Shown: positions 20,342 to 64,000 of the stretch, piece by piece
Layout: each line of letters opens with the position of its first letter
Position numbering within the stretch: position 1 is the stretch's first letter
NCBI GenBank assembly: GCA_963716255.1
Contig: OY970303.1
Coordinates: 416,001 to 480,000, forward strand
DNA from: an uncultured Gemmatimonadales bacterium
GTDB taxonomy: Bacteria > Gemmatimonadota > Gemmatimonadetes > Longimicrobiales > Longimicrobiaceae
Direction of reading: 5' to 3'
Length of the DNA stretch: 64,000 nucleotides
Program-made: the position numbers and the translations under genes
The notes under the pieces: generated by a model
Databases searched by the model: none
What the model was told of the DNA's origin: nothing
The model's input: only the letters and a program-made list of their open reading frames with translations

Positions 20342-20574
20342 GTCGCCTCGCGGCGACAGGACCAAGCTACACGGCGGGCGCGGGCCGCGCAAGGGAGCCG
20401 TTCATCCTTTTACCCGGATGCACGGCTGAACAACGTCGGGCGGCGGCGCCGCGGCCGGAGATGCTTGCCATGCCGGGGCGCGCCGTCGAATATGATGCAG
20501 GCTGCGGCCGCCGGGCCGGCCGGGCGCCTTTCCGGACCGGTCCACCCGCACTCCCACCTGGCAAGGAGCCCCGA

Positions 20575-21942: not shown

Positions 21943-22060
21943 TCTCTCCCCCGGTCGGCTCTCCCTTCAGGAAAAACCCGGCTCCCGTCCATCAAATCAC
22001 CTGGATCCCGCGACCCGGCGGGGTCACCAGCCGTCCTCATCCTCCGGCATCCACACCGCC

Positions 22061-24895: not shown

Positions 24896-24951
24896 GCCGG
24901 GACGCCGGGCCGGTCGCCTGCCACTGACCACCTGCGAGCGCGAGGAAAAGA

Positions 24952-25590: not shown

Positions 25591-25811
25591 CGCCCCGGCG
25601 GCCCACCTCTGCCGGCCCCGACGCCCGCCACCCCCGCCCGGGTGGCGGGCGTCGCGCCGGGTGCAAGCGAAGCGGCCACACCCGGCGCGCCGGGCGAAGA
25701 AGCTTGCCTCCCGCATGTTTTCCGTCCATTCTGGCCGACGGAGCGCCGGGGGATCCGGACCGCTCGGCTCCCCGGAGGAGCCCCTTCACCCTTCCTCGGA
25801 ACAGGCAGACG

Positions 25812-27344
25812 ATGACATTCCGGCTTCTCCCCCTCCGCGCCGCGGCCCCGCTCCTCCTCGCGGCGGCGCTGGCCGCGTGCGCCGAGCGCGCCGATTCGCC
25901 GCTCTCCCCCGCCCCGGCGCCGCGCGCCGACGTCGCGGCCGCCGCGGTGACGGGAACCATCGTGCTGGCGGGCGGCGGCGCGGAGGGAGACGTGGGCGAC
26001 ACCTCGTCGTGGAGCTACAAGCTGTACAGGGAGGTGGTGGAGAACGGCGACGTGGACGGCGACGGCGTGGTCCGCGTGGCGGTGCTGACGGTGGACGCGT
26101 CCACCTCGTTCATCACCGACTACTTCGAGTGGATCGGGACCACGCTGGGCGTGCCGGTGGACGCCACGATCTACCAGGTGACCACGCGGGCGGAGGCCAA
26201 CGACCCGGCGCGGGTGGGCGCGGTGGCCAACGCCGACGCGGTCTTCCTCAAGGGCGGAGACCAGGGCGTGTACTACGACCAGTGGAACGGCACCCTCCTG
26301 GAAACGCACGTGCGCACCGTGGTGGAGACGCGCGGCGGGGCCGTGGGCGGCACCAGCGCGGGGGCCATGAGCCAGTCGCAGTTCTGCCTGTGCGGCAGCG
26401 CCGACCTGGTCTCCGCCGACGTGATGACCAACTCGCACACCTCCTTCCTCAACGATGTGAGCGACGGCGGCACCGGCATCCACACCGATTTCCTGAATTT
26501 CCTGGGCGGCGCCGTGGTGGACACACACTTCACCGAGCGCGCGCGCTTCGGGCGGCTGCTGGGGACCATGGCGAAGGCCGCCGAGGACAACGCCGCGCCC
26601 GGGATCCTGGGCATCGGCATCGAGCGGCAGACAGGGCTCGCCATCCGCGGCGGGGTGGCCGAGGTGATCGGCAACGGCGAGGTGTCGTTCGTGCAGCAGA
26701 CGCCCGCCACGGCGCGCATCCGCACGCCGGGCAAGCCGCTCGTGTACACGCACCTGCGGGTGGACCGGCTCACGCACGGGTGGACGTACGACCTGGGCGC
26801 GAAGCTGCCGGGCACGGCGGCGCCGGGGGTGCTGGCCGTCAGCTACGCCGGCGACGGCGCGGCCAACTCCGGGGCGCTCAGCATCGCGGGCTCCACGGAG
26901 CGGGACAACTCCAGGTTCGAGAAGGTGGCCACGTACTCCAGCAAGGACTACTCGCTGGCGAACACCTCGGCGAGCGTGTTCGTGCGCAGCGGCGTGGGCT
27001 TCACGGACGCGGGCAACTCCGGCAATCGCGGCTTCAAGCAGGAAACGCTGTTCCGCGCCCTGTACGACGTGCCGGCGTACAGCGGGCTCCTGCTGTTTTC
27101 CGGCGGCACCGCGTCGCGCGTGGCCGCCAGCCCGGACGTGCTCTCGTTCTCCGGCGCGGGGACCATCGTGGTGGACGGCAGGACGGTGGCGAGCCGCGGG
27201 CTTTCGCCGTACAAGTCGTACCAGGCCACCAGCAAGGGGACGCTCAGGGCGGCGGCGCTCACCGGCCTCACGGTGCACGTGCTCGCCGAGTCCGCCACCA
27301 CGGGCAAGCGCTACAACACGCGGACTCATGCGGTGGTGCCGTGA
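25812..27344 (+). CDS. Cyanophycinase-like S51 peptidase lipoprotein
   Basis: LAAC lipobox; IVLAGGG, ADAVFLKGGDQ, GGTSAGAM, DTHFTERARFGRL, GIGIE. Confidence 0.88.
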   Translation: MTFRLLPLRAAAPLLLAAALAACAERADSPLSPAPAPRADVAAAAVTGTIVLAGGGAEGDVGDTSSWSYKLYREVVENGDVDGDGVVRVAVLTVDASTSFITDYFEWIGTTLGVPVDATIYQVTTRAEANDPARVGAVANADAVFLKGGDQGVYYDQWNGTLLETHVRTVVETRGGAVGGTSAGAMSQSQFCLCGSADLVSADVMTNSHTSFLNDVSDGGTGIHTDFLNFLGGAVVDTHFTERARFGRLLGTMAKAAEDNAAPGILGIGIERQTGLAIRGGVAEVIGNGEVSFVQQTPATARIRTPGKPLVYTHLRVDRLTHGWTYDLGAKLPGTAAPGVLAVSYAGDGAANSGALSIAGSTERDNSRFEKVATYSSKDYSLANTSASVFVRSGVGFTDAGNSGNRGFKQETLFRALYDVPAYSGLLLFSGGTASRVAASPDVLSFSGAGTIVVDGRTVASRGLSPYKSYQATSKGTLRAAALTGLTVHVLAESATTGKRYNTRTHAVVP

Positions 27345-32355: not shown

Positions 32356-34251
32356 TCAGGCCACCGTCTTCGCCCAGTCCAGCCACTCCTGCTGCCGCTC
32401 GCGCGACACCCCCCACCGGCTCCCATCCACCCCGAACCAGTACTGGCGGATCTCCTCCGGCGCACTCGCCCGGCGCATCACCTCGTCGGGCTCCATCCGG
32501 AACAGCTCCATGATGGTGCGGATCATGGCGAGATCGCTCGCGGAGTGGCGAGGCGTGGCACCTTCCGGCCTGTGCGCCCGCGCGACGACGGCACGGCGCG
32601 GCACGTACACCCACTCCTCGGTGAACACCGGCGTCTCGTCCACCTCGGGATAGGTGAGCACCGTCTTCACCACCTCCTCGAAGTGGTCCATGCGGTGCTT
32701 GAAGCTCTGCTCCATCCCGTACATGCCCAGCAGGTAGTGAAGCGCCAGGTCCTTCGCCTTCACCTCCACGCCGTCGCAGGCGAAGAAGAAGGGATCCTGC
32801 GTCTCGTGGAGCTCCAGGTCCTGGAATCCCGCCGAGAAGAGCATCACCGCCATCTGCACCGGCCCGATGTGCGGGATGTCGTGCCCCGTCTTGCTGTGCT
32901 TGTCCACCACGTGGTGGAACCACTGCCCCGCCGGCCCCTCGTCGAAGAAGTCGTGCACCACGACCACCGCCCCCGGCTTCATCACCAGGCGCGCCTCGCG
33001 CGTGGCGTCGAACATGTCGGGGATGTGGTGCGTGCCGTAGGCGAAGAGCACCCCGTCCAGCGAGTCCGCCAGGAAGGTGCGCGACAGCTGCGTGGCGTCC
33101 TCGCGCGAGGGGAGCCCCCACAGCCCCGCCCGGTAGAACATGTGCGGGGAGATGTCGTTGGTCACGATCAGCGCCCCGCCCTGCTGGTCCCGCCCGGCCG
33201 CCACGAACGCCGCGGCGCGGTCCGCCAGCGGCTCGGCGCCCGGCACCTCGGCGAGCCACGCCGCCTCGCCCGCGCTCACCAGGCCCCGCAGCTCCGCGCC
33301 GGAGATGGAGATCTCCTCCGAGACCGCCGGCTCGCCGGCATGCGCGGCCAGCAGGCGCGCCGTGTAGCGGGTCTCGCCCTGCACCGCCCCGTCCGCGGCG
33401 GCATCCTCCGCCCGGCGCACCAGCAGCACCGCGACGTGCGGGTCCACGGCCGCGAGGCGCTCCAGCAGCCCGCGCGCGGCGGCGGGAAGCTCGGCTCCGT
33501 CCGCGGGGAAGAGGCCGGCGTCCTCCACGATCACCAGGCGCGTGTCGGCCACGCCCTTTTCCGCCTCCAGCAGGCGCCACACGTACCCGTCGCCCCCCAG
33601 CACGTCCAGGAAGATCCCCGGCTCGCCCTCGCGGGCGCCCAGGAGGTCCAGGAGCATGCGGGCGCCCATCCAGCGGCTGGCCTGGAAGCTCGCCATGCCG
33701 CGGGTGTATTCCGCGCCGCGCCCGCGCAGGTCGAAGTCGCCGCCCATGATGTCGCGCCAGATGGGCGCGTACTCGTTCTCCTGGCGGATCACCCCGGCCG
33801 CCGCGGACCAGCGCGGGTGCGCGGCCATGCGCGCCTTCCACTCCGCCTCCAGGTCGCGGAGCCCCTTGTCCTCCAGCATCTCCAGCTCGTCCGCGCTCCA
33901 CAGCGGCGAGAAGGAGACGCGGGCGCGCTCCCGCAGCGCCTCGAAGGCAGCGGGCGGGAGGTGGTCGCGCAGGAGGCGCCACACGCCCGCCTCGGACGCC
34001 CCGCCCACGATGACGCGGTTCAGTGCCTCCGAGTGGCCGTGCAGGTAGGCGCGCTCCTCGCGCTCCACGCCGGGAAGGGCGGTGATGGGCAGCCCCAGGC
34101 CGTCGCGGATCCGCCTGGCCTCGCGCGAGAGCGGCAGGGGAGCGGCGGCGCCCGGCGCGCCGTGGCGCGCCCCGGCACCTTCCGCGGGCGCCGCGGGAGA
34201 GGCCTGCGCCCTCCCGGCCGCCAGCCCGCTCGCCCTCTGGTCGATCGCCAT
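32356..34251 (-). CDS. Class I SAM-dependent methyltransferase with large insertion (BGC tailoring)
   Basis: IFLDVLGGDG (motif I), IVTNDISPHM, DSLDGVLFAYGTHHIPD, LVMKPGAVVVVHD; RBS aggagga. Confidence 0.8.
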   Translation of the reverse strand: MAIDQRASGLAAGRAQASPAAPAEGAGARHGAPGAAAPLPLSREARRIRDGLGLPITALPGVEREERAYLHGHSEALNRVIVGGASEAGVWRLLRDHLPPAAFEALRERARVSFSPLWSADELEMLEDKGLRDLEAEWKARMAAHPRWSAAAGVIRQENEYAPIWRDIMGGDFDLRGRGAEYTRGMASFQASRWMGARMLLDLLGAREGEPGIFLDVLGGDGYVWRLLEAEKGVADTRLVIVEDAGLFPADGAELPAAARGLLERLAAVDPHVAVLLVRRAEDAAADGAVQGETRYTARLLAAHAGEPAVSEEISISGAELRGLVSAGEAAWLAEVPGAEPLADRAAAFVAAGRDQQGGALIVTNDISPHMFYRAGLWGLPSREDATQLSRTFLADSLDGVLFAYGTHHIPDMFDATREARLVMKPGAVVVVHDFFDEGPAGQWFHHVVDKHSKTGHDIPHIGPVQMAVMLFSAGFQDLELHETQDPFFFACDGVEVKAKDLALHYLLGMYGMEQSFKHRMDHFEEVVKTVLTYPEVDETPVFTEEWVYVPRRAVVARAHRPEGATPRHSASDLAMIRTIMELFRMEPDEVMRRASAPEEIRQYWFGVDGSRWGVSRERQQEWLDWAKTVA

Positions 34252-34309: not shown

Positions 34310-36010
34310 CTATGCTTCCTGCGCCTGCGCCGAGGCGAGGGGCAGGGGCACGCCGACCGGGCGGTACTGGAAGGACTCGGGGCTGCCGTCGTACTCGATC
34401 TGCCCGGAGTCCAGCTTGATGATGCGGTCCGCGACGCCGTAGTAGTGGTCGTCGTGGCTGATGACCACGCACGTCTTGCCGCGGGCCTTGAGCTCGGGGA
34501 GGAGCTGGAGGTAGAAGACCTCCTTGAAGAGCGGGTCCTGGTCCGCCGCCCACTCGTCGAACAGGTAGATGGGGCGGTCCTCCAGGTACGCGACCAGGAG
34601 CGCGAGGCGCTTGCGCTGGCCCTGCGAAAGAGCGGTGGTGGACAGCTTGCCGCCCTCCACCCGGACCTTGTGCGCCAGGTGGAGCTCCGACAGGAAGCGC
34701 GTCGCCAGCGCGTCCATCTCCGGCGACTCCATGCCCAGCAGCGAGTCGAACAGGTAGAAGTCCGAGAACACCACCGCGAACTGGTGCAGGTAGTCCGCGC
34801 GGTTGGCGTCGGTGACCGGGCGCCCGTCGAAGCGCAGCTCCCCCGACTCGGGGACGTAGAGCCCCAGGATCAGCTTGGCGAGCGTGGTCTTGCCGCTGCC
34901 GTTGCCGCCCACCATGAACACCGTCTCCCCCCGGGAGATCGTCATGTCGATGGGGCCCAGCGTGAACGGCTCCTCCTCGCCGTCGCGGTGGTAGGCGTGC
35001 GTGACGCCGGCCATCTCCAGGCTGCTCCACTCCGCGCGCTGCTCCGGCACCGGGGCGCCGGGGAGGCGCGGCACGGGCCCGCGGGCGTCGTCCAGCGACA
35101 GCCCCAGGTCGTCGATCTTGCGCAGGGAGACCTGCGCGCGCGACATCTCGGGGATGACGCCCAGCATGACCTCCAGCGGAGTCATCATGTACAGCAGGAC
35201 CAGCGCGTACCCGGTCATCGTCTCCAGCCCCACCACCTCGAAGGAGGGGACCAGGAAGATGATGGAGCCGATCATCATGAAGATCACCAGCTGCCCCCAC
35301 CCGGCCGCGGCGCTGTAGATGGTGGACGCCGTCACCGTGAGGCGCTTGAGCACCACGCCCGTGGCGTCCAGGCCGTAGATCAGCCCGTCCTGACGCGGGA
35401 AGTGCAGCTTCAGTTCCTTGTACCCGTTGGTGATCGCCCGGAAGTGGGCGAACAGCGTGTCGGACTCCTCGCGCGCCTTACGCTGGTACGACTGGGCCCG
35501 CAACATGGGGATCTGGTAGGTGACCACCCCCACCAACATGAAGCACAGCACGATGATCAGCACCTTCCAGGAGAGCCACCCCAGGTAGAGGAGCGACCCC
35601 GTCACCATCGCTCCGTGCACGAACAGCTGCGGGAGCGAGGTCATGGTCATGACGATGACGTTCACGTCCTGGGTGAGCGCCGCCAGCAGCCGGTGCGACC
35701 CGATCTCCTCCAGCCTCTGGAGCGGCGCGGCCAGGATGCGCCGGCTGAGCTGCGTGCGCAGCTCCAGGATCGTGTTCTGCCCCAGGGTGGTGATGATGAA
35801 CGTGGAGAAGCCGCGCGCGAACGGGAGGATGAGGCAGAGTGCCAGGAACTGAAGCACCAGGGTCCGGTGCGTCCAGGGCTGCGCGGTGTGGATGGCCCGG
35901 TTCATCAGGGCGAGGAGCCCCGCGTTGCTCGCTCCGCTCACCACGCCCGCAGCGATGGACAGCACCACCAGGAGGGGCGATCTGCGGAGGAGCACGAAGA
36001 GAAGCTTCAT
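34310..36010 (-). CDS. Cyclic peptide export ABC transporter (SyrD/PvdE/YojI family)
   Basis: GYKELKL, FTLGPIDM, GGNGSGKTT, FSDFYLFD, LSQGQRKRLAL, FDEWAADQDP. Confidence 0.95.
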   Translation of the reverse strand: MKLLFVLLRRSPLLVVLSIAAGVVSGASNAGLLALMNRAIHTAQPWTHRTLVLQFLALCLILPFARGFSTFIITTLGQNTILELRTQLSRRILAAPLQRLEEIGSHRLLAALTQDVNVIVMTMTSLPQLFVHGAMVTGSLLYLGWLSWKVLIIVLCFMLVGVVTYQIPMLRAQSYQRKAREESDTLFAHFRAITNGYKELKLHFPRQDGLIYGLDATGVVLKRLTVTASTIYSAAAGWGQLVIFMMIGSIIFLVPSFEVVGLETMTGYALVLLYMMTPLEVMLGVIPEMSRAQVSLRKIDDLGLSLDDARGPVPRLPGAPVPEQRAEWSSLEMAGVTHAYHRDGEEEPFTLGPIDMTISRGETVFMVGGNGSGKTTLAKLILGLYVPESGELRFDGRPVTDANRADYLHQFAVVFSDFYLFDSLLGMESPEMDALATRFLSELHLAHKVRVEGGKLSTTALSQGQRKRLALLVAYLEDRPIYLFDEWAADQDPLFKEVFYLQLLPELKARGKTCVVISHDDHYYGVADRIIKLDSGQIEYDGSPESFQYRPVGVPLPLASAQAQEA

Positions 36011-36077: not shown

Positions 36078-37112
36078 TCAGTGGATCACGCGCGAGTCCG
36101 GCGACAGCCTGCCGTCGCGCGACTTGCGCAGGTCGCGGGTGACGTTCACCCGCTTCAGCCACCGGTCCGTGCCGTCGTAGTGGGCCTTGAACGGCTTGCG
36201 GCCGTGCACGGCCTTGAAGTTGTCCACGAAGATGAAGTCGCCCGGGGACAGGGCATGGTCCTCGATCACCTCGTCCACCTGGCGGATCAGCTCGTCCAGG
36301 GCGGCCTGGGCCTCGTCGTTGTCGCGGACCGGGTCCATGAAGTACGGGTCCAGCCGGATGTAGGGCGACTCGGTGCCGCCCGAGAACACCGGGATCTTCT
36401 CCGGGGTGTCCCACATCTCGTCGATCTTGGCGTAGGCGCGCTGGAGGAGCGCCTCCTCCTCGGGCGAGCGGCCGTTCTTCTGGCCCCGGTTCTTGGCCAG
36501 GTGCGACTCGTCGGGACGGATGGTGAAGTGCGGCTCGCTCAGGAGGCGCGCATGGTCCGGGGTGAGGTTCACCCGCTCCAGCGAGGCGAAGGTGGTGGGG
36601 ACGCCGTCCGGGTTGCGGAGGCACATCAGCCCCAGGTAGTCGCCGCGGTACGGGTGGAAGGCGTCCTCCGTGTGCCAGGTGAGCGTTTCCTCGCTCCCGC
36701 TCCCCAGCTGCTCGTGCTCGTGCCCCTGGATGGGGAAGATGTCGTGGACGATGCGCCCGTCCTGCTGGGTGGACCAGCCGATGACGTCGCCCAGCAGCGA
36801 GGCGAAGAGGACCAGGAGGATCTCCTCCTCCAGCGTGTCGTTGGAGGGGTCCTTGTCGCGCCAGTGCCGCGGCGTGCGGCCGATCCTGCCCTGGTCCACC
36901 GGGTAGCCGGAGACGGTCAGGAGCGCGTCCTTGGGCTCGGTGAGCCGGAACTCGCGGAAGGCGGCGCGTACGCGCCGCGGCAGCTCGTGCGCGTAGACGT
37001 CCGCTTCCTTCAGGAACTGTGGATCTTCCGGCGTCTGGTAGCGCGAAGCGAGCTCCCGGAGCACACTCCGGATCGAAGCGACCTCGTCGCCGGTCAGCAC
37101 GACCCTGGGCAT
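36078..37112 (-). CDS. Fe(II)/2-oxoglutarate dioxygenase, VioC/MppO-like (arginine-type beta-hydroxylase)
   Basis: QQDGRIVHDIFP, WHTEDAFHPYRGDYLGLMCLRNPD (HxE), DNFKAVHGRKPF, DRWLKRV. Confidence 0.88.
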   Translation of the reverse strand: MPRVVLTGDEVASIRSVLRELASRYQTPEDPQFLKEADVYAHELPRRVRAAFREFRLTEPKDALLTVSGYPVDQGRIGRTPRHWRDKDPSNDTLEEEILLVLFASLLGDVIGWSTQQDGRIVHDIFPIQGHEHEQLGSGSEETLTWHTEDAFHPYRGDYLGLMCLRNPDGVPTTFASLERVNLTPDHARLLSEPHFTIRPDESHLAKNRGQKNGRSPEEEALLQRAYAKIDEMWDTPEKIPVFSGGTESPYIRLDPYFMDPVRDNDEAQAALDELIRQVDEVIEDHALSPGDFIFVDNFKAVHGRKPFKAHYDGTDRWLKRVNVTRDLRKSRDGRLSPDSRVIH

Positions 37113-37187: not shown

Positions 37188-38315
37188 CTAGACGAGCGCG
37201 GGCGCCGCGGCGGAGCGCAGCTGGAGCGAGAGCCGGGCAAGGCCCTCCTCCAGCACCTCCGTCGACCTCCCGAATCCCAGCCGGACGTGCTGCGCGTGGC
37301 CGAAGCAGTTGCCCGGCACCAGGAGCACCCGCTGCTCGCGGGCCAGCTGGTGGCAGAACGCCTCCACGTCCGGCACGGAGTCCAGTCGCGGAAAGGCGGT
37401 GACCCCGCCGCGCGGCGGGACCCAGGTGACCAGGTCGTCGTGCTCCGCCACCCAGGCGGCCAGCACGTCGCGGTTGTGGCGGGCCAGCCCCACTCGCTCC
37501 GCCAGCAGGCGGTCCGCGTGCACGACGGCGCGCTCGGCGATCATCTCCACCAGCGGCGACAGGTGCAGCGTTACGTAGTCGCGCACCCGGATCATCTCCT
37601 CCAGGATCTCCGGAGCGGCGAAGCACCACCCCACCCGCAGCCCAGGGAGCCCGTACGCCTTGGAAAAGGTGCCCGTGGAGATGGCGCGCTCGTACTTCAG
37701 CACCGGCTCCGGGAGCGGAGGAGTGTCGTAGGTCAGCTCCAGGAAGGCGTTGTCCCAAACGAGGTAGGCGCCCGCGCGGTCGCAGGCGGCGATCAGCGCG
37801 TCCTGCCCTTCGGGGGTGAGGGTGGCGCCGGTGGGGTTGTGGGGGAAGTTGACCACCACCATGCGCGTGCGCGGCCCGATCAGGCGCACCCCCTCCTCCA
37901 CGTCGGGGACGAAGCCGTTCTCCCAGCGCAGCGGCCAGTGCTTGAGCGCGCACCCCAGCGCTTCCGCGACGGCGTACAGCTGGGGGTAGCACGGGTCCAG
38001 CACCACCACCTCGTCGCCGGGGCGGAGGAGCGCGTGGTCCATGAGGAAGTTGGCCTCGCTGGAGCCGTGCGTCGCCATGGCGCGCGACGTGTCGCCGCCC
38101 AGCCAGCGGTCGGCGAGGGCACGGCGCAGCCCGTCGCCGCCCAGCGACATGCTGTCCTGGAAGACGACGCGGTCGAAGTCGGCCTCGGTGATCCCCACCA
38201 GCCGGCGCAGGTCGACCATGGAAAAGTCGTCGACCCCGCTGCTGCCGATGTCGACGTCCGTGTCGAAGTAGTAGTAGCGCATCCAGTTTTCCAGGAGCGC
38301 CGGAGGTAGCTGCAT
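37188..38315 (-). CDS. Capreomycidine synthase, VioD/CmnD-like PLP enzyme
   Basis: LLENWMRYYYFDTDVDIGSSGV, THGSSEA, VNFPHNPTG, LVWDNAF, TFSKAYGLPGLRVGW; adjacent to the VioC-like gene. Confidence 0.88.
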   Translation of the reverse strand: MQLPPALLENWMRYYYFDTDVDIGSSGVDDFSMVDLRRLVGITEADFDRVVFQDSMSLGGDGLRRALADRWLGGDTSRAMATHGSSEANFLMDHALLRPGDEVVVLDPCYPQLYAVAEALGCALKHWPLRWENGFVPDVEEGVRLIGPRTRMVVVNFPHNPTGATLTPEGQDALIAACDRAGAYLVWDNAFLELTYDTPPLPEPVLKYERAISTGTFSKAYGLPGLRVGWCFAAPEILEEMIRVRDYVTLHLSPLVEMIAERAVVHADRLLAERVGLARHNRDVLAAWVAEHDDLVTWVPPRGGVTAFPRLDSVPDVEAFCHQLAREQRVLLVPGNCFGHAQHVRLGFGRSTEVLEEGLARLSLQLRSAAAPALV

Positions 38316-38341: not shown

Positions 38342-39106
38342 TCAGCGGAGCGCCAGGCGAAGCAGGTCCTCGGATACCGCGTGCACCAGCTGCTGGCGCG
38401 CGCCGTTCAAAAAGAAGTGGCCGCCCGGGAACATGCGCAGCTTGAAGAACCCCCGGGTGTGCTCCTTCCACGCCATGAGGTCGTCGCGGCTCACGTCCGG
38501 GTCCTCCAGCCCGCCGAACGCGGAGATGGGGATGTCCAGCGGCACGCCCTCGCGCAGGGCGTAGGTCTCGCACAGCTCGAAGTCGGCCCGGAGAATGGGG
38601 GCGAAGAGCTCCATCAGCTCCGGGTGCTCCAGGATCTCGTCGGGCGTGCCGTTCAGGTTGCGGAGCTCCACCTGGAACTCCTCCTCCGGCAGCCCGTGGA
38701 GCTTGCGCTTGTCGCTGGGGCGCTGCGGGGCGCGCCGTCCGGACACCAGCAGGTGCTCGGGGAGCTGCTTCCCCACGGCGCGCAGGCGCCGGGTGAGCTC
38801 GAAGGCCAGCATCGCCCCCATGCTGTGCCCGAACAGGGCAAAGGGCACGTCCATGTACGGCGACAGCTCCTCGGCCAGCTGCTCCACCAGCGCCTCGGAG
38901 CGGGTGAGCGCGGGCTCGGTGAAGCGGTTGCCCCGCCCCGGGAGGTGAACCGGGACGACGTGGATCTCGGGAGGCGCCACGGCTCCCCACCCCCGGAAGA
39001 CGGAGGCGCCGCCCCCCGCGTACGGGAAGCAGAAGAGGCGGAGGCGCGCCCGGGGCCCGGGCTTTTCCCATTCGACGACGGAGCTCTTCCTGGCTGCGTT
39101 GCTCAC
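38342..39106 (-). CDS. Type II thioesterase
   Basis: LFCFPYAGGGAS, FGHSMGA, LRADF, FPGGHFF. Confidence 0.95.
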   Translation of the reverse strand: MSNAARKSSVVEWEKPGPRARLRLFCFPYAGGGASVFRGWGAVAPPEIHVVPVHLPGRGNRFTEPALTRSEALVEQLAEELSPYMDVPFALFGHSMGAMLAFELTRRLRAVGKQLPEHLLVSGRRAPQRPSDKRKLHGLPEEEFQVELRNLNGTPDEILEHPELMELFAPILRADFELCETYALREGVPLDIPISAFGGLEDPDVSRDDLMAWKEHTRGFFKLRMFPGGHFFLNGARQQLVHAVSEDLLRLALR

Positions 39107-39358
39107 TGCCTGCCATGGTTGGAGCCGGGGAAAGCGCATCCGCTCGTCCCCCGGCTGCTTGTGAACGCCCGCCCCGGCGCGCCGGAGAGGTGCCCCAAGA
39201 GGGCCTGTACACGCCTGAAGCTACCCGCGAACACGTGGTTTAGCAACCCTCCTGTCGCAAAATAACTGGCGCTTTGGACCCTCATCCGGGCGGGATCCGG
39301 CGCGTCGCCTGGACCGCCGGGAAGTGCACCCCGGCGGCCATGCGCCGCGCCTCGCGGC

Positions 39359-40474
39359 TCAGTCGAACGGGACGCCGGACGCCGCGGACAGGCGGCGGAG
39401 CTGCTCCACCACCGGGAGGATCACCGGGACCCCGTCCACGCGCCGCTTCTCCTCGGCGCGGCGGTTGGGATCGCCCGGGATCATGGGGCCGGAGGTACCC
39501 GCGGCGGGGCGGGTGCCGCGGATGGTGCGCACCCAGTCGTCCACCTGGCTCCTGAACTCGGCCGGGTCGATGAAGCCGTCGATGCGGAGCGCCATGAAGA
39601 AGTGCCCCACCCCCCTGCCCACGTAGCGCGGCGGGGCCGGCAGGTTGGCCGGGAAGGGCGGCGGGTACGGCCCCCAGTTGGCGCCGCTCAGCACCGCCGA
39701 AAGCATGTCCACCATGGCGGCCATGCAGTACCCCTTGTGGCCGCCGTGCTGGAAGTCGCCGCCCAGAGGGAGAAGGGCGCCCCCGGCCAGCATCTCGCCC
39801 GGGTCGGTGGTCATGCGCCCGTCGCGGTCCACGGCGCACCCCTCGGGGATACGCTCGCCCTTGCGCGCGGCGTGCTCCACCTTGCCGAAGGCGATTGCGC
39901 TGGTGGTCACGTCGATGACCACGTCCGGCTCCTCGCCCCCGGGGAAGGCGATGGCCATGGGGTTGGTGCCCAGCATCTTCTCGGCGCCGTAGAGCGGGGC
40001 CACCTGCGGGGGCGAGTTGGTCATCGCCCACACGATCATGTCGCGCGGGAGACCCTGGAGCGCGTAGTACTCGCCGATGCCGAAGTGGTTGCTGTTGCGG
40101 ACCGCGACCGAGCCGGAGCCCGCCGCGTCCGCCTTGTCCATGGCGATGCGGTTGGCGCGCGGTCCCACCACCAGCCCCAGCCCGTTGTCCCCGTCCACCG
40201 TGGCGGTGGCGAGGGTCTCGCGCACCACGCTGAGCTGCGGCCGGGGGTTGATCCACCCGCGCTCGAACATCTCCACGTACTGCGCCAGCCGCGCGACGCC
40301 GTGGGTGTCGATCCCCCGCAGGTCGGCGGTGGCGAGCACGTCGGCGGCCAGGCGCGCGTCCTCCTCCGGCACCTCGCGCCACCGGAGGATGCGGGTGGAG
40401 AACTCGCGCAGCCGCTCGATTGGAAAGACCTCCACCGCCGCCGGGGCGGGAGCCCCCGCGCCGCCCGCGCTCAC
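39359..40474 (-). CDS. Ldh_2 (malate/L-lactate dehydrogenase-like, NAD(P)) oxidoreductase
   Basis: ADLRGIDTHG, VDGDNGLG, VRNSNHFG, LGTNPMAIAFP, GGHKGYCMA; GTG start overlaps the upstream TGA. Confidence 0.92.
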   Translation of the reverse strand: MSAGGAGAPAPAAVEVFPIERLREFSTRILRWREVPEEDARLAADVLATADLRGIDTHGVARLAQYVEMFERGWINPRPQLSVVRETLATATVDGDNGLGLVVGPRANRIAMDKADAAGSGSVAVRNSNHFGIGEYYALQGLPRDMIVWAMTNSPPQVAPLYGAEKMLGTNPMAIAFPGGEEPDVVIDVTTSAIAFGKVEHAARKGERIPEGCAVDRDGRMTTDPGEMLAGGALLPLGGDFQHGGHKGYCMAAMVDMLSAVLSGANWGPYPPPFPANLPAPPRYVGRGVGHFFMALRIDGFIDPAEFRSQVDDWVRTIRGTRPAAGTSGPMIPGDPNRRAEEKRRVDGVPVILPVVEQLRRLSAASGVPFD

Positions 40475-41680
40475 CGTCCCCTCTTCAGCACCCGGCCGAG
40501 CCGAGCCACGCCCTCGTGGATGCGCTCGGGGCCGCAGTGGGAGAAGTTGAGGCGCACGCAGTTGGAGGCGTAGCCGTCGCCGCCCACCGCGAAGGCGCTC
40601 CCGGGGAAGAAGGCGACGCCCTCGGTGTCCAGCGCGGTGGCGAGGAGCGCCGTGGCGTCGGTCCCCTCGGCGAGCTCCACCCAGGTGAAGACGCCGGCCG
40701 TGGGAGAGCGCCAGCGCGCCTCGCCGCCCAGGTGCTCGCGGAGCGCCGCGTCCATGGCGTCGCGCCGTGCGCCGTACTCGCGCCGCAGCGTTTCCAGGTG
40801 GCCGGGGAGGAGCCCGTCGTCGATGTACGCGGAGATGATCCGCTGGGTGAAGGTGGAGGTGTTGATGTCGGTCGCCTCCTTGATGATCCCCAGCGGACGG
40901 ATCAGCTCCTCCGGCACCACCAGCCACCCGCAGCGGAGCGCGGGGGCGAAGATCTTGGAGAAGGTCCCCATGTACAGCACCCAGCGCTCGTCCAGCGCGC
41001 GCAGGGGGAAGAGGATTGTCGACGTACTGGAAGTAGCCGTACGCGTCGTCCTCCAGGATGGGCACTCGGTGCTCGCGGGCCAGCTCCACCAGGCGCCGCC
41101 GCTTTTCGGCGCTGACGCTCACCCCCAGCGGGTTGTTGCCGTCGGTGACGACGTAGATCAGCGCGGGGCGCTCCCCGGCCGCGAGCAGAGCCTCCACGGC
41201 GTCCACGTCGATCCCGGTGTCCAGGTCGGTGGGGACGGTGAGGATCTCGGGCTGGAAGGGCTCCACCGCCTGCTGGAAGCCGGTGTAGCAGAGCCGCTCC
41301 GTGAGCAGGGTGCCGCCGGGGTTCAGCAGCAGCCGCGTGAGCAGGCTCATGCACTGCTGGCCGCCGGCGGTGAGGAACACCTGCTCCTCGCGGCACTCCA
41401 CGCCGCGCCGGGCCATCAGCTCCACCACCTGCCGCCGGAGCGGCGCGAACGGCGGGGAGTACTGGAGCGCGAGCGGGTCCTGCGCCAGCACCCGCTCCGC
41501 GGCGGTCGACAGGCCGGCGGCGGGGAACAGGTCCGGCGCCGGGAAGCCCAGCGCGAGGGAGAGGATTCCGGGCTGGGAGCTCCGGACCAGCATGGTCTGC
41601 AGCGCCGAGGGGCGGACTTCCTGCGCCCAGCGGGCGAGCGTCAGCTCCTCGGTGGCCTGCATCGTGGGGATGGCGGACAC
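40471..41680 (-). pseudogene. PLP-dependent class I/II aminotransferase, frameshifted at ~41004-41008 (pseudogene or sequencing error)
   Basis: N-half (SLALGFPAPDLFP, ALQYS, NNPLG, ILEDDAYG) and C-half (LYMGTFSKIFAPALRCGW, VRLNFS) are in different frames across a G5 run. Confidence 0.85.
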
Positions 41681-41691
41681 GGTCTCCCCGC

Positions 41692-42810
41692 TCAGATGTT
41701 GCCGCGGAGGGCCTGCTCGGCCTCGAGTGACTCGAAGAGCGCCTTGATGTTCCCGGCGCCGAAGCCCTTGGCGCCGCGCCGCTCGATCACCTCCACGAAG
41801 AAGGTGGGGCGGCCCTCCAGCGGCTCCGTGAAGGTCTGCAGCAGGATGCCGTCCTCCTCGCGGTCGATCTGCACGCCCAGCTCGGAGGCGGGGATCATGT
41901 CCGCGGGGTCCACCGCGCCGATGCGCGCCTCCAGCATCTGGTAGTAGGTCTGCGGCACGCGCAGGAACTTGATGCCGTTGCCCTGGAGCGCGCGCACGAC
42001 CGTGAAGATGTCCTCGGTGAGGTAGGCTACGTGCTGGCTGCCGGCGCCCTTGTTGAAGTCCAGGTACTCCTCGATCTGCGACTTGCCCTTGGAGGGGGCG
42101 GGCTCCTGCATGGGGAACTTGATGCTCCCGGTGGGATCCTCCACCACCTTGGAGTTCATCGCGCTGCGCTCGGTCCACACCATCTCGTGCTTGGACTGGT
42201 GGAAGCCCAGCACGTTGGTGTAGAAGTCCACCTGCGCGTCCAGGTCGCCCTCGCGCAGGCTGACGGCGACGTGGTCAACCGCGAGGAGCCCGCGCCCCAG
42301 CGACGCGGCCGGGCCCATGTGGTCCACCGGCTGGTAGTGCGGGAGGAAGCGCCCGGCGTAGTCGCCGCGCTGGATGAAGGAGTGCACCGTGTCGCCGAAA
42401 GCGCCGATGGTGGCCTTGACCACCCTGCCGCCGTCGTCCGAGAAGGCGGTGGGCTCCATGATGGGGGTGGCGCCGCGGGACACCGCGGCCTCGAAGGCCT
42501 GCGCCACGTCGTCCACCGTGAAGGCCACGTCGCGGACGCCGTCGCCGTGCTGGTGCACGTGCAGCGCGATGGGGCTGTCCGGGGTGAGGCCGCTGGACAC
42601 CACCAGCCGGATGCGCCCCTGCTCGAGCGCGAAGGAGGCGCGGTCGCGCACGCCGGTGGCGAGCCCGGCTCTGCCCACGGGGCGGAAGCCGAAGATCGTG
42701 CGGTAGAAGTGCGCCGCCTGGAAGGCGTTGCCCACCCACATCTCCACGTGGTCGATGCCTCTGAGCTGGACGGCGCTCCGGGTCGCGACTTCCTCTTCGA
42801 TCTTGGCCAT
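41692..42810 (-). CDS. HppD-family dioxygenase with 4-hydroxymandelate synthase (HmaS)-like signature
   Basis: HGDGVRDVAF, VDHVA, QHVA, FFVEVIER; AMNSKVV and GNIKAL (HmaS-type) rather than GNFKAL. Confidence 0.8.
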   Translation of the reverse strand: MAKIEEEVATRSAVQLRGIDHVEMWVGNAFQAAHFYRTIFGFRPVGRAGLATGVRDRASFALEQGRIRLVVSSGLTPDSPIALHVHQHGDGVRDVAFTVDDVAQAFEAAVSRGATPIMEPTAFSDDGGRVVKATIGAFGDTVHSFIQRGDYAGRFLPHYQPVDHMGPAASLGRGLLAVDHVAVSLREGDLDAQVDFYTNVLGFHQSKHEMVWTERSAMNSKVVEDPTGSIKFPMQEPAPSKGKSQIEEYLDFNKGAGSQHVAYLTEDIFTVVRALQGNGIKFLRVPQTYYQMLEARIGAVDPADMIPASELGVQIDREEDGILLQTFTEPLEGRPTFFVEVIERRGAKGFGAGNIKALFESLEAEQALRGNI

Positions 42811-43152: not shown

Positions 43153-59385
<16,233 letters not shown>

Positions 59386-59396
59386 GCGCCCGCCGC

Positions 59397-62300
59397 TCAC
59401 CCCCGCCCCGCGGCCCGGCGCTCGCGCAGGATGCGCTGCACCTCCTCCGGAGACATCCCCGCCACCAGGCGCAGCATCTTCGCGGCCTTCTCGGTCTGCC
59501 CGGGGCGCGGCTCCAGCCGGGCCAGCGCCGCGGCCAGGCCGGCCACGGTGGGCGTCTCGAAGAGCACGCGCAGCGGCAGCTCCGCGTGCAGCATCCGGCG
59601 GGTGCGGGTGACGACGCGCGTGGCCAGCAGCGAGTGCCCGCCCAGCGCGAAGAAGTCGTCGTGCACGCCCACGCGCTCCACCCCCAGCACGTCCCGCCAG
59701 ATGTCCGCCAGCACCTCCTCGACCGCGGTGCGCGGTGCGGCGTACTCGCGCTCCGCGGCGGACGCGTCCGGTGCCGGGAGCGCCGCCCGGTCCGTCTTGC
59801 CGTTGGACGTCAGCGGAAGCGCCTCCAGGACCACCCAGTCCGCGGGGACCATGTAGTCCGGGAGCCGGCCCCGGAGCCAGGCGCGCAGCACCTCCACGTC
59901 CGGCCCGCGCGCGCCCTCCCCCACCACGTACGCGGCGAGCCGCCGGTCGCCCGGCGCGTCCTCGCGCGCCATGACGAACGCCTCGCGCACCGCCGGGTGG
60001 TCGGTCAGCACGGCCTCCACCTCGCCGGTCTCGATGCGGAAGCCGCGGATCTTGACCTGGAAGTCCATCCGGCCCAGGACCTCCAGGCCGGCGTCCGCCA
60101 GGCGGCGCACCCGGTCGCCGGTGCGGTACAGCCTCGCGCCGGGCTCCGCGGAGAACGGGTCCGGGACAAAGCGCTCCGCGGTGAGGTCCGGCCGCTCCAG
60201 GTAGCCGCGCGCCACCCCTTCCCCGCCGATGAAAAGCTCGCCCGGCACCCCCGCCGGCACCGGCTCGCCGTGCGGGTCCAGCACGTACAGCCGCACGTTG
60301 CCGTGGGGCGTGCCCACCGGGAGGTTGTGCCGCCGCGCGCCCCCGTCGTCCCCCGCCTCCAGCCGCAGCGTGGTCGACGTGCAAGCCGTTTCCGTGAGGC
60401 CGAAGACGTGCACCAACGGCACGCCCAGCGTCGCCCACTCCGCCAGCCGCTCCGGCGCGACGCGCTCCCCGCCCACGATCACCCAGCGCACGCACTCCGG
60501 GACGCGCCCGCCGCCGTGCACCAGGTCGTACGTCCACTCGTGCCAGTACGCCGTGGGCAGCTCCAGCCCCGTCACCCCGTGCTTGGCGATGGCGCGCGTC
60601 AGCTCCGGCGGCGAGAACAGGTCCTCCCCCGCCAGCACCACCGCCGCCCCCGCCAGCCAGGTGGGGAACAGCTCCTCCACCACCACGTCGAACCCCAGCG
60701 ACGCGAACTGGAGCACGCGGTCGCCCGCCCCCAGCCCCATCCGCGCCGCCATGTCCACCGCGAAGTTCACCACCGCCCGGTGCGGCACCGCCACCCCCTT
60801 GGGCCGCCCGGTGGAGCCGGAGGTGTAGATGACGTAGGCCAGGTTGTCGGGGGACGACGAGTGCGAAAGTACGCCCGCATCCACCGGAGTGTCGTGCTGG
60901 AGGGAGGTGTCCACCGCGACGACCTCGCCCGCGAACCACCCGAACCGGTCCGCCAGTGCTTCCTGCGTGAGCAGCACCCGCGCGCCGCAGTCCTCCAGCA
61001 CCCAGCGCAGGCGGTCCTCCGGGTAGCCAGGATCCAGCGGCACGTACGCCGCGCCCGCCTTCAGCGCCCCCAGGATCGCGGCCGGCATCTCCGGGCCGCG
61101 ATCCATGGAGATCCCCACCCGCTCCTCCGGGCCCACGCCCAGCTCCCGCAGGCGGGCGGCGACCTCCGCGGCGCGCGCGTCCAGCCCGGCAAAGGTCAGC
61201 TCGCCGCCCTCGAACACCACGGCCGGGGCGTCCGGCGCGAGGACGGCCCGTGCGGCGAAGGCTCCGTGGAGGGTGAGGTGGCGCGGGAAGTCGTACGCGG
61301 TGTCGTTCCAGCGCTCCACCACCCGCTCGCGCTCGCCGGGCGGCATCAGCGGCAGGGCGGAGACGCGGGCCGAGGGTTCCGCCGCCATCCCCTCCAGCAG
61401 GACGCGGAAGTGCTCCATCATGCGGTCCACGGTGGCCGCGTCCCACAGCTCGGCGCGGAACTCCACGCCGCAGCGCAGCCCGCCGTCCTCGCCGAAAAGC
61501 ACCAGCGCCAGGTCGAAGGGCGTCGCCCCGGTCTCCGTCGCCAGCGGCTCCACCTCCACCTCGCCCAGCCGCAGCGGCTCGCCGCCCAGCTCCGCCAGGG
61601 TGAACATCACCTGGAAGAGCGGCGTGTGCCCCAGGCTGCGCTCCACCCGCAGCTCGTCCACCAGCCGCTCGAAGGGGAGGTCCTGGTGGGTCTGCGCCTC
61701 CAGCATCCGTTCGCGCGCCTGCGCCAGCAGCTCCCGTGTGGTGGGGTCCGCGGACAGGTCGGCGCGCAGCACCAGCGTGTTGACGAAGAAGCCGATCATT
61801 CCCTCCGTCTCCAGCCGCGTGCGCCCGGCCACCGGCGTCCCCACCAGCACGTCGTCCGTGCCGGCGTAGCGGGCGAGCAGCGCCTGGAACCCCGCCAGCA
61901 GCGTCATGAACAGCGTGGCGCCCTCCCGCCGCGACAGCGCGCGCAGCGCGTCCGCCAGCTCCGCCGGGAGGTGGAAGACCCGGAAGCCTCCCTCCGGGCT
62001 CGGCGCCGCCGGGCGGGGGCGGTCCGTGGGGAGCTCCAGCAGCGGGGGGGCGCCCCGCAGCCGCTCGCGCCAGTAGGCGAGCTGCCGCCCGGTGGTCTCG
62101 CCGTCCAGCCAGCGGCGCTGCCAGGCCGCGTAGTCGGCGTACTGCACCGGCAGCTCCGGGAGCGGCGAGGGCTCGCCGTGCAGGGAGGCGCCGTACAGCG
62201 CGGACACCTCGCGCACCAGGATGGGCGTGGACCACTCGTCGCTGACGATGTGGTGCACGGTGAAGAGCGCCACCGCGTGGTCCTCGCCCAGACGGAGGAG

Positions 62301-64000
62301 CGTGCCCCGCAGCAGCGGCCCCGCGGCCAGGTCGAAGGGCGCCGCGGCCTCCTCGCGCGCCAGCTCGCGCACGCGCGCCTCGCGCTCCGCCTCCGGCAGC
62401 CCCGCCAGGTCCACCCGCCGGAAGGCGAAGGGCCCCGGCTCCAGCACCACCTGCGCGGCGTCGCCGTCCGCGCCGGGGCGGAACACCGTGCGCAGCGTCT
62501 CGTGCCGCCGGGCCACCTCCGCCACGCTCCGCTCCAGCGCCGCCACGTCCAGCCGGCCGCGCAGCCGCAGCGCCACGGGGAGGTTGTAGGCGGGGTCGCC
62601 CGGGTCCAGCTGCTCGATGAACCACAGCCGCTGCTGCGAGAACGACAGCGGCAGCGCGCCGGGCCCGTCGCGCGGCACCGGGACGATGGGAGGCGCCTGC
62701 TCTCCCGGCCCGTCGCCGCGCAGCGCCTCCACCCGCTCCGCCATGGCCCGCACCGTGGGCGACTCGAAGAGCGCGCGGATGGGCACCTCCACCTCCAGCG
62801 CGCGGCGCACCCGGGAGACCACCCGCGTCGCCAGCAGCGAGTGCCCGCCCATGCGGAAGAAGTCGTCCTCCGCGCCCACCCGCTCCACCCCCAGCACCTC
62901 CGCCCAGATCGCCGCCAGCGCCTCCTCCGTGGGCGTCCCCGGCGCCACGTAGCCCTCGTCCGGCGCGCCGCCCTCCGGCGCGGGAAGCGCCCCGCGGTCC
63001 ACCTTGCCGTTGGGGGTGAGCGGAAAGGCGTCCACGGCCACGAACGCGGACGGGACCATGAAGTCCGGGAGCCGCTCCCGCAGGTGGTCGCGAAGCTCCT
63101 CGGACGGCGCTTCCGCCCCCGGCTCCTGGACCACGTACGCCACCAGCCGCCCGTCCCCCGGGGGGTCCTCGCGCACCAGCACCAGCGCCTCGCGCACCTC
63201 GGCGTGCTCCAGGAGCTGCGCCGCCACCTCGCCGGGCTCGATGCGGAAGCCGCGCACCTTGACCTGGTGGTCGGCGCGGCCCAGGAACTCCAGGTTTCCG
63301 TCCTCCAGCCAGCGCGCGCGGTCGCCGGTGAAGTACATCCGCGCCCCCGGCATCCCCGAGAACGGGTCGGGGACGAAGCGCTCCGCCGTCAGCTCCGGCT
63401 GCCCCAGGTAGCCGCGCGCCACCCCCTCCCCGCCCACGAACAATTCCCCCGGCACCTCCGGCGACGACGGCTGCATGCGCCCGTCCAGCACGTACAGGCG
63501 CATGTTGGCGAAGGGCCGCCCAACGGGGACCATGGCGTCCGCGCCGCGCGCCGCGCCCCCTCCCTCGTAGAACGAGCTGTCCACCGTCGCCTCGGCCACC
63601 CCGTAGGCGTGGATCCAGCGCGTCCCGGGGGCGCACAGGGCGCGGACCTCCTCGTGCTCGCGCCCGTACCAGGCGTCCGAGCCCACCACCAGCAGCCGCA
63701 TGAAGTCCAGCCGCTCCCCCGTCTCACGCAGGTGCGCGGCGAGGGCGCGCAGCACCGCCGGGACGAACTCCGCGGTCTCCACCCCGTGCCGCCGCATCAG
63801 CGCGTACAGCGCGGGCGGGTCCAGCAGCGTGTCCACCGGCACGGGCACCAGCATCCCGCCGGAGCCCAGCGCCCGCAGGAAGTCCCCCGCGAACACGTCG
63901 AAGGAGAAGCTCGCCATCTGCAGGTGCACGGTCGGGCCGGGGCGCAGCTCGAAGGCCTCCTCCCACGCGTGGTAGGCGTTCACCCAGCTGCGGTGCTCCA
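59397..64000 (-). CDS. NRPS, C-terminal part (...A-T-C-A-T); 5' end beyond the window
   Basis: Partial A (FSFDVFAGD, code DVGEVGAVDK, Orn/Dab-like), T, C (HHIVSDEWS), A (DVEEIGVCTK), T (GGHSL), short helical tail. Confidence 0.95.
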   Translation of the reverse strand, partial: EHRSWVNAYHAWEEAFELRPGPTVHLQMASFSFDVFAGDFLRALGSGGMLVPVPVDTLLDPPALYALMRRHGVETAEFVPAVLRALAAHLRETGERLDFMRLLVVGSDAWYGREHEEVRALCAPGTRWIHAYGVAEATVDSSFYEGGGAARGADAMVPVGRPFANMRLYVLDGRMQPSSPEVPGELFVGGEGVARGYLGQPELTAERFVPDPFSGMPGARMYFTGDRARWLEDGNLEFLGRADHQVKVRGFRIEPGEVAAQLLEHAEVREALVLVREDPPGDGRLVAYVVQEPGAEAPSEELRDHLRERLPDFMVPSAFVAVDAFPLTPNGKVDRGALPAPEGGAPDEGYVAPGTPTEEALAAIWAEVLGVERVGAEDDFFRMGGHSLLATRVVSRVRRALEVEVPIRALFESPTVRAMAERVEALRGDGPGEQAPPIVPVPRDGPGALPLSFSQQRLWFIEQLDPGDPAYNLPVALRLRGRLDVAALERSVAEVARRHETLRTVFRPGADGDAAQVVLEPGPFAFRRVDLAGLPEAEREARVRELAREEAAAPFDLAAGPLLRGTLLRLGEDHAVALFTVHHIVSDEWSTPILVREVSALYGASLHGEPSPLPELPVQYADYAAWQRRWLDGETTGRQLAYWRERLRGAPPLLELPTDRPRPAAPSPEGGFRVFHLPAELADALRALSRREGATLFMTLLAGFQALLARYAGTDDVLVGTPVAGRTRLETEGMIGFFVNTLVLRADLSADPTTRELLAQARERMLEAQTHQDLPFERLVDELRVERSLGHTPLFQVMFTLAELGGEPLRLGEVEVEPLATETGATPFDLALVLFGEDGGLRCGVEFRAELWDAATVDRMMEHFRVLLEGMAAEPSARVSALPLMPPGERERVVERWNDTAYDFPRHLTLHGAFAARAVLAPDAPAVVFEGGELTFAGLDARAAEVAARLRELGVGPEERVGISMDRGPEMPAAILGALKAGAAYVPLDPGYPEDRLRWVLEDCGARVLLTQEALADRFGWFAGEVVAVDTSLQHDTPVDAGVLSHSSSPDNLAYVIYTSGSTGRPKGVAVPHRAVVNFAVDMAARMGLGAGDRVLQFASLGFDVVVEELFPTWLAGAAVVLAGEDLFSPPELTRAIAKHGVTGLELPTAYWHEWTYDLVHGGGRVPECVRWVIVGGERVAPERLAEWATLGVPLVHVFGLTETACTSTTLRLEAGDDGGARRHNLPVGTPHGNVRLYVLDPHGEPVPAGVPGELFIGGEGVARGYLERPDLTAERFVPDPFSAEPGARLYRTGDRVRRLADAGLEVLGRMDFQVKIRGFRIETGEVEAVLTDHPAVREAFVMAREDAPGDRRLAAYVVGEGARGPDVEVLRAWLRGRLPDYMVPADWVVLEALPLTSNGKTDRAALPAPDASAAEREYAAPRTAVEEVLADIWRDVLGVERVGVHDDFFALGGHSLLATRVVTRTRRMLHAELPLRVLFETPTVAGLAAALARLEPRPGQTEKAAKMLRLVAGMSPEEVQRILRERRAAGRG

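Follow-up and report, generated by a model that had tools for sequence, protein, structure and literature searches.

An FMN-oxidase-free candidate pathway to 4-hydroxyphenylglycine in Longimicrobiaceae, with an Ldh_2-family dehydrogenase in the place of Hmo

How might 4-hydroxyphenylglycine (Hpg) be made at a locus where the flavin mononucleotide (FMN)-dependent oxidase of its known pathway is missing? Hpg is typical of glycopeptide and lipopeptide antibiotics, and the textbook route to it consists of an invariable set of three enzymes, HmaS, Hmo and HpgT. The question is raised by three genes at 39359..42810 in a 64,000-nucleotide stretch of DNA from an uncultured Longimicrobiaceae bacterium (hereafter, the window), which corresponds to positions 416001–480000 of one 8.42 Mb contig of a genome that is 97% complete. 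The trio lies on the minus strand in the order dioxygenase (41692..42810), aminotransferase (40471..41680) and Ldh_2-family NAD(P)-linked 2-hydroxyacid dehydrogenase (39359..40474), with Pfam matches to Glyoxalase, Aminotran_1_2 and Ldh_2. An earlier note on this DNA had described the genes as tightly coupled, with an 11-bp gap followed by a GTGA overlap, which was confirmed by the coordinates, and had proposed that the dehydrogenase replaces Hmo. It was concluded that a single Hmo-free Hpg cassette probably serves many biosynthetic clusters of this genome in trans. The dioxygenase would convert 4-hydroxyphenylpyruvate to (S)-4-hydroxymandelate, as its residues, its place in the tree and the absence of HgmA suggest; Ldh_2 would oxidize 4-hydroxymandelate to 4-hydroxybenzoylformate with NAD(P)+, to which co-occurrence, the missing oxidase and the chemistry of the family point; the aminotransferase would convert the keto acid to L-Hpg; and L-Hpg would be loaded by adenylation domains of the DIFHFG type elsewhere in the genome, as their code and co-occurrence with the cassette indicate. 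In what follows, fetched loci are designated by L numbers and the genomes compared by G numbers, G000 being the source genome.

The dioxygenase (372 residues), a Pro-retaining hybrid type predicted to be a 4-hydroxymandelate synthase, was the only member of the family of 4-hydroxyphenylpyruvate dioxygenase (HPPD) and HmaS found in the source genome; the nearest named records were Longimicrobiaceae or Gemmatimonadota metagenome-assembled genomes, with 87–97% identity in this protein. Its iron triad (H180, H260 and E340) was unchanged in all 120 homologues, and glyoxalase-fold domains were recognized by Pfam. The motifs AMNS, FPMQEP and GNIKAL were present, and alignment with S. avermitilis HPPD (1T47 numbering) bore out the statement of the earlier note that the HPPD Asn is gone and the Pro kept: Leu228 was replaced by Met, Asn245 by Gln and Phe364 by Ile, and Pro243 was retained, so that the HPPD signature Leu228/Asn245/Phe364 was absent. 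Two HmaS genes adjoining an alpha-hydroxy acid oxidase gene (L136 and L137) carried Met (Leu228), Ile or Leu (Asn245), Ile (Phe364) and Thr (Pro243); with these Hmo-linked enzymes the dioxygenase shared the Met that replaces Leu228 and the Ile that replaces Phe364. Among the 120 nearest homologues, 115 had the Met-Asn-Ser plus Pro pattern without the Asn, the Asn245 position being occupied by Val (59), Gln (43), Met (11) or Leu (2) and the Pro being present in all 115, while the remaining five were canonical HPPDs; all of the named proteins among the 120 were labelled HPPD in the databases. In a tree constructed without the seven signature columns (mixture model, 32 of the 53 gathered sequences; a quick tree of 53 rows agreed), 12 hybrids and five actinobacterial HmaS-type proteins formed one clade (support 100/97) nested in the HPPDs. 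In view of this grouping with HmaS, a convergent rise of the hybrid signature from HPPD was rejected. The actinobacterial branch was long, and the order inside the HmaS clade was not settled by the tree.

An HPPD-family match was found in 30 of the 71 family genomes compared, with 27 belonging to the hybrid clade (at least 57% identity) and three canonical. No match to homogentisate 1,2-dioxygenase, HgmA_C included, was found in the source genome, and HgmA_N was confined to three of the 71 genomes, precisely those that carry canonical HPPD; none of the 27 hybrid genomes had it, a distribution that supports the view of the earlier note that the hybrid does not belong to a homogentisate route. 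A rival view, in which an ordinary HPPD supplies homogentisate as a pigment or building block and its neighbours are an unspecialized aromatic aminotransferase and dehydrogenase, is highly improbable. The dioxygenase did pass the HPPD model TIGR01263 (375 vs. 277 bits), the structure search scored HPPDs above HmaS, with HPPDs as top matches, and its C-terminus, LRGNI, is HPPD-like; however, the equivalents of Leu228, Asn245 and Phe364 are all altered, loss of the Asn or the Phe cripples homogentisate formation (PMC3739788, PMC13260116; the papers cited here by PMC number, PMC7291104 excepted, are represented by parts of their text), and the hybrid co-occurs with Hpg-like adenylation domains. 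With Phe364 changed to Ile, HPPD forms hydroxymandelate and oxepinone besides homogentisate, and without the Asn its reaction becomes uncoupled (PMC3739788, PMC13260116); in HmaS, a change of Ile to Val at the Asn position leaves the activity in place (PMC7225752). Taken together, the residues, the tree and the absence of HgmA make hydroxymandelate synthase activity of the dioxygenase very probable; the enzyme falls outside the actinobacterial signature class and likely works like HmaS. A separate HmaS-type gene, without the active-site Ser, was noticed on a Streptomyces finlayi plasmid (L289, 374-7721), where its neighbours encode an FAD-linked oxidase and a protein with a condensation domain; Hmo and an aminotransferase were not seen in the stretch read.

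The distribution of the third gene followed that of the dioxygenase. Cassette-clade Ldh_2 (at least 69% identity) was present in 27 of the 27 hybrid genomes vs. one of the 44 others, the sole exception, G035, being 77% complete and carrying the Ldh_2 gene at a contig end; other Ldh_2 genes fetched from non-hybrid genomes were 28–40% identical or gave no match. G008 was rejected as cassette-positive, its Ldh_2 being only 30% identical. The 44 negatives include the unpublished genome G022, on which none of the conclusions rests. Ldh_2 adjoined the dioxygenase in 22 of the 27 genomes, co-directionally in 13 and divergently from the dioxygenase–aminotransferase pair in nine, and these adjacent cassettes sat beside differing nonribosomal peptide synthetase (NRPS) and precursor genes in two genera. 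The recurrent trio arrangement is not a matter of chance, and the hmaS–Ldh_2 synteny without hmo that the earlier note had envisaged extends across both genera. A canonical hmo elsewhere in the cluster, which that note had regarded as fatal to its proposal, was not found, and the Hmo query gave no match in 37 cassette-related loci. Genes of the FMN_dh family were present in 21 of the 27 hybrid genomes and in 24 of the 44 negatives; they were not found in G011, G030, G048, G054, G056 and G059 (77–98% complete). Three of these six were 94–98% complete, and G048, G054 and G056 are close kin. On a species tree of the Tex gene, the state of the dioxygenase changed 10 times, and independent pairs for dioxygenase and Ldh_2 gave seven same, none opposite and one tied (p = 0.016); for dioxygenase and FMN_dh, no co-variation was revealed on this tree.

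These results bear on the alternative that Hpg is made while a housekeeping flavoenzyme oxidizes the mandelate, Ldh_2 having a side role such as 4-hydroxyphenyllactate recovery, reduction of aryl keto acids to hydroxy-acid units or redox balance of the transhydrogenase type. In its favour, FMN_dh genes are found in most of the cassette genomes, FAD-linked oxidases (FAD-oxidase_C) occurred in all five genomes tested, Ldh_2 was unlinked from the dioxygenase in three genomes (G036, G055 and G058), and E. coli YbiC/HcxB reduces aryl pyruvates. The Ldh_2 family also includes reductases and a malate–lactate transhydrogenase with a bound cofactor (PMC13034625). Nevertheless, Ldh_2 tracks the dioxygenase in all 27 genomes and FMN_dh does not, and the cassette Ldh_2 lies well under the YbiC-type cut-off (184 vs. 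336 bits), so that the flavoenzyme alternative appears unlikely.

The Ldh_2 dehydrogenase of 371 residues, with an NSPPQ motif characteristic of its clade and a predicted role as 4-hydroxymandelate dehydrogenase, was the only member of its family found in the source genome (PF02615, 387 bits), and the structure search returned the family fold (TM 0.81–0.88). The catalytic residues were kept as H58, R62 and H130, which map by motif to His44, Arg48 and His116 of AllD, where His, Arg and His are catalytic (PMC3527362). The cut-offs of the named NCBIfam subfamilies were not reached (ComC, 266/500; AllD, 173/356 and 159/496; YbiC-type, 184/336; YiaK, 132/316 bits). The homologues comprised 51 clusters at 69–98% identity, followed by 69 clusters at 62–67%, and 20 positions distinguished the two groups, among them 155–157 (PPQ vs. 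mostly TKL; 155 corresponds to AllD Asp141) and 275–278, directly past the Met251 match. These clade-specific changes, which fall in part at substrate-site positions, suggest a changed substrate, the identity of which they do not name. For several homologues, the source gives the name L-2-hydroxycarboxylate dehydrogenase (NAD+), in keeping with the (S) configuration of the HmaS product (PMC7225752). A pocket argument from the AlphaFold model of Ldh_2 was dropped, the predicted local distance difference test (pLDDT) score of the clade-specific loop being under 50. NAD-linked oxidation of mandelate is probably uphill, and tyrosine as amino donor would regenerate the first substrate, as in the canonical cycle; transamination would pull the oxidation forward. 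A bound cofactor of the transhydrogenase type is a possible way round the unfavourable equilibrium.

The second gene encodes a pyridoxal phosphate (PLP)-dependent aminotransferase of class I/II, LysN-like, with a predicted HpgT role. The earlier note had given the order and families of the trio correctly and had missed that this frame is broken near 41003: from the GTG at 41680 to 40471, the gene spans 1210 nt, which is not a multiple of three, and no open frame exists in the assembly. The homopolymer at this point has 2 nt fewer than in all five related loci and in the contigs of all four sequencing runs compared (four of 24 listed; the reads are not of the source strain itself, with a best share of 0.41, and the RNA runs had small shares only). 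This frameshift was the sole uncompensated coding break noticed over 9.3 kb in comparison with a 96% identical locus, while the homopolymer profile of the assembly resembled that of relatives and gave no sign of a genome-wide error rate. In L003, the aminotransferase frame is open and the catalytic Asp, Lys and Arg motifs are present. Because the frame is intact in five of five loci and four of four runs, the frameshift is most likely an assembly error. It is not probable that the break is real in the source strain and the step lost or handed to one of two intact paralogues (55% and 54% identity) in other NRPS regions of the genome. The break does stand in the window sequence, the paralogues exist, and the reads compared are of other origin than the strain; however, the 2-nt loss falls in a homopolymer, is isolated in 9.3 kb of coding sequence, is contradicted by every locus and run compared, and would affect a genome with 61 putative consumer domains.

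These putative consumers belong to an NRPS load that is extreme: the source genome (8.4 Mb) contained 437 adenylation-like domains in 27 regions, and relatives in the genus had 73–274 A3 motifs. The code DI[FLW]H[FLYC]G was read in 61 of the 437 domains (14%), which were spread over 15 of the 27 regions. The commonest codes, DIFHFGLILK and DIFHFGLVIK, shared six of ten positions, including the Asp, the His, Gly301 and Leu322, with the Hpg code DIYHLGLLCK tabulated in PMC9113097; the His at this code position (His278) binds the Hpg phenol in teicoplanin A1 (PMC10687080). The domains retained the amino-binding Asp235, and 58 of 62 domains of a slightly wider pattern had an in-frame condensation motif upstream, being mostly elongation modules; a methyltransferase motif occurred in 12 of the 62 vs. 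five of 345 others. An amino acid is the better fit for co-occurring domains that retain this Asp and belong mostly to elongation modules; this counts against a hydroxy-acid role of Ldh_2 and weakens the suggestion of the earlier note that the trio supplies an aryl hydroxy-acid building block. Domains of this type adjoined the cassette in four relatives (L104, L109, L112 and L131) and lay in the same cluster in a fifth (L132). The sequence HAVP[AS]LM was used as a marker, 56 of its 57 matches falling in the DI[FLW]H[FLYC]G class. It was found in 27 of the 71 genomes, namely, in 25 of the 27 cassette genomes and in G035 (77% complete) and G008 (61% complete), and 14 cassette-free genomes with at least 20 A3 motifs yielded no marker in 581 motifs. 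Independent pairs for cassette and marker were approximately 6/0/2 (median p = 0.03, range 0.016–0.125). Because the marker tracks the cassette, is absent from the 581 motifs of cassette-free genomes and is in agreement with it in independent pairs, the substrate of DIFHFG-type domains most likely comes from the cassette, in trans; some 60 modules, distributed over 15 NRPS regions, would draw on one cassette per genome. The Hpg route proposed in the earlier note is therefore supported for the cassette, with its consumers likely in 15 other NRPS regions and not in the adjacent NRPS: an Hpg module there was ruled out, since none of the 10 adenylation-like codes of the adjacent cluster fits.

The code also admits that another non-standard amino acid is made and loaded by the DIFHFG-type domains, either phenylglycine from phenylpyruvate or a ring-oxidized product of the oxepinone or quinolacetate type. 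HPPD variants at the Pro- and Gln-site positions yield oxepinone or quinolacetate (PMC3739788, PMC13260116), HmaS enzymes accept phenylpyruvate (PMC7225752), and the adenylation code is not identical to that for Hpg. Against this, the dioxygenase groups with HmaS in the tree, Val, Met or Leu replaces the Asn in 72 of the 115 hybrids, at a site where a change of Ile to Val keeps HmaS activity, His278 points to a phenol, and a transaminase would require a keto acid, which ring-oxidized products would not offer. Such a product is, on balance, improbable, and Hpg remains the preferred substrate. Recurrent codes without an assignment were also recorded in this genome: DVASNGLTYK (18 times), DAGKIGGIRK/DAAKVGGIRK (16 times) and DARGLGHVNK (eight times).

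It should be noted that a number of observations weigh against the Hmo-free Hpg pathway in trans. Besides the HPPD model score, the structural ranking of HPPDs above HmaS, the broken aminotransferase frame, the absence of an Hpg-like code from the adjacent cluster, the FAD-linked oxidases and the three unlinked Ldh_2 genes given above, the dioxygenase lacks the actinobacterial HmaS signature (Thr in place of Pro243 and a hydrophobic residue in place of Asn245), having Pro and Gln there, and single changes at HPPD signature sites give mixed products that include oxepinone (PMC3739788, PMC13260116). The aminotransferase is 33% identical to an HmaS-adjacent actinobacterial one. No Ldh_2 enzyme acting on mandelate was found in the literature searched (titles and abstract openings, with few subscription journals). 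Ldh_2 and the dioxygenase lay on separate broken contigs in G010 and G030, and the source genome has one full FMN_dh, 3.7 Mb off and 41% identical to an hmaS-linked oxidase (Hmo), with no NRPS context within the 4 kb read. The Hpg-like codes differ from the known Hpg code at four of ten positions, and at position 330 many carry Ile or Val, although in teicoplanin A1 a change of Leu to Val there helped abolish Hpg binding (PMC10687080); the teicoplanin Hpg domains were not the top match in a structure search with a DIFHFG domain. The cassette genomes G031 and G039 lack the marker, a relaxed marker pattern giving no more matches in them than the control, and G008 carries the marker without a cassette gene. 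The species tree was constructed from the one gene, by a quick method, for 50 of the 71 genomes.

Outside the family, the middle step may have been solved differently. A wider spread in the phylum was rejected, the signature pattern being found in three of 401 genomes, of which two were in the family and one was false (G422, no dioxygenase at L284). In another sample of 401 genomes, two from outside the family had a LarA-family gene after those for the hybrid dioxygenase and the aminotransferase, with an NRPS directly before the set (L294:6933-10559 of G643 and L295:6826-10374 of G621, unpublished); G643 is sufficient for this finding on its own. The LarA-family nickel-pincer protein of both was under all four LarA model cut-offs; Ldh_2 was found in neither G643 nor G621, and FMN_dh was not found in G643. 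This protein may carry out the mandelate step in a third way, or it may racemize hydroxymandelate. A metagenome scan with distant hybrids returned the signature in five of 80 loci, on short contigs, with the aminotransferase in one and a third gene in none. A wider reading, held tentatively and with slightly less than even confidence, is that the cassette is a peroxide-free hub supplying Hpg to the whole genome, with Hpg ranking among the commonest NRPS monomers of this lineage, that the Pro-retaining dioxygenases are a slow-evolving HmaS grade ancestral to the actinobacterial enzymes, and that the middle step is swappable between FMN oxidase, Ldh_2 and, elsewhere, a LarA-family nickel-pincer enzyme. 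If the cassette acts as proposed, Ldh_2 would be a natural non-orthologous displacement of Hmo and would add a new substrate class to its family, and phenylglycine biocatalysis would gain an NAD-linked dehydrogenase for (S)-mandelate. Genome mining for hmaS together with hmo, or trust in the label ‘hppD’, would overlook such a cassette, and a matching adenylation code would make dozens of orphan modules per genome readable in an NRPS-rich, barely explored family.

The surroundings of the trio are those of a precursor-supplying gene run beside an NRPS cluster. Directly upstream lies an NRPS of five modules (43153..59385) without an Hpg-like code (DVEEVGVCTK, DFWNVGMVHK, DAEDIGTVVK, DAWFLGDVVK and DVASNGLTYK), followed by part of a two-module NRPS (59397..64000), with which the cluster continues past the window. 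In total, a hybrid cluster of NRPS and polyketide synthase (PKS) of approximately 42 kb precedes the trio, approximately 21 kb of it past the window, where a FAAL-type NRPS, a TauD-like gene, an NRPS and a PKS are located; neither an Hpg-like code nor an FMN oxidase was found in that part. At its end (43153-43400), the last NRPS has a carrier domain and then a charged tail, and a thioesterase domain is absent. On the other side of the trio, all on the minus strand, are a type II thioesterase of NRPS housekeeping, recognized by Pfam (38342..39139), a VioD-like capreomycidine synthase (37188..38315; TIGR03947, 511 bits vs. a cut-off of 391), which forms the second precursor cassette of the run with a VioC-like arginine beta-hydroxylase that also exceeds the GntD model cut-off (36078..37112), and a cyclic-peptide export ABC transporter (34310..36010; TIGR01194). 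A second VioC-like copy (66% identity) lies at genome position ~15000, and the adjacent NRPS, through its DVEE[IVL]GVCTK code, may be the consumer for the VioC/VioD (capreomycidine) route. At the end of the run, a 631-residue protein (32356-34251) has a weak methyltransferase match (E = 1.5e-4) and is conserved at this position in relatives (68–94% identity). In L124 (G009), the run of trio, thioesterase, VioD, VioC and methyltransferase-like gene stands between mutS and a TetR gene, and no NRPS was seen in the 17 kb of sequence retrieved, as would suit a precursor island standing on its own. Diaminopropionate genes of the SbnA/SbnB type and other PLP enzymes related to SbnA often come after the cassette (L105, L106, L115, L116 and L119), which suggests that precursor-supply genes cluster here. 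Elsewhere in the window, an IS630-like transposase pair (HTH and DDE_3; 7841-9024) is inserted between rnhB and rplS, and four plus-strand open frames of 220–1025 codons (20275-27341) had no Pfam match in any. A promoter scan found nothing, and a plasmid search gave no match at 60% or more.

In the literature searched, no description of the Ldh_2 replacement or of the DIFHFG code was found, and a genome note on Longimicrobium terrae gives NRPS clusters and does not mention Hpg (PMC7291104). Compared with the known Ldh_2 L-2-hydroxyacid dehydrogenases (ComC, 2X06; the Pyrococcus enzyme, 1V9N; E. coli AllD and YbiC; the Veillonella transhydrogenase), for which no aryl-glycolate activity was found in that literature, the cassette enzyme has the same fold and catalytic His/Arg/His but differs in the Pro at the AllD Asp141 position and in the altered loop after the Met251 position. 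Outside the actinobacteria, Herpetosiphon aurantiacus has an Hpg pathway that is reported to use an Hmo-type oxidase; its HmaS is HPPD-like (Kastner et al., PMID 22307823). The Hpg genes of this species lie in a PKS/NRPS locus (PMC3368417), and the cloning primer for this HmaS, according to Table S2 of PMC8715069, encodes an HPPD-type C-terminus, LRGNL, similar to LRGNI here. The same enzyme was used in PMC8715069. In engineered phenylglycine cascades described there, a dehydrogenase in place of Hmo gives the aryl-glyoxylate; those cascades, however, are man-made and draw on other families (D-mandelate dehydrogenase with a racemase), whereas the cassette would be a natural Ldh_2 solution. With the canonical HmaS–Hmo–HpgT pathway of actinobacterial glycopeptide and lipopeptide clusters, the cassette shares an HmaS-clade dioxygenase and a PLP aminotransferase beside NRPS genes, as well as Hpg-like adenylation codes with His278. 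It differs in having Ldh_2 in the third place and no FMN oxidase, in the Pro plus Gln or Val of its dioxygenase, and in consumers that are scattered over many clusters and not located beside it. Thus, judged by its sequences, the cassette is likely a new version of the known Hpg pathway in which the middle enzyme has been exchanged.

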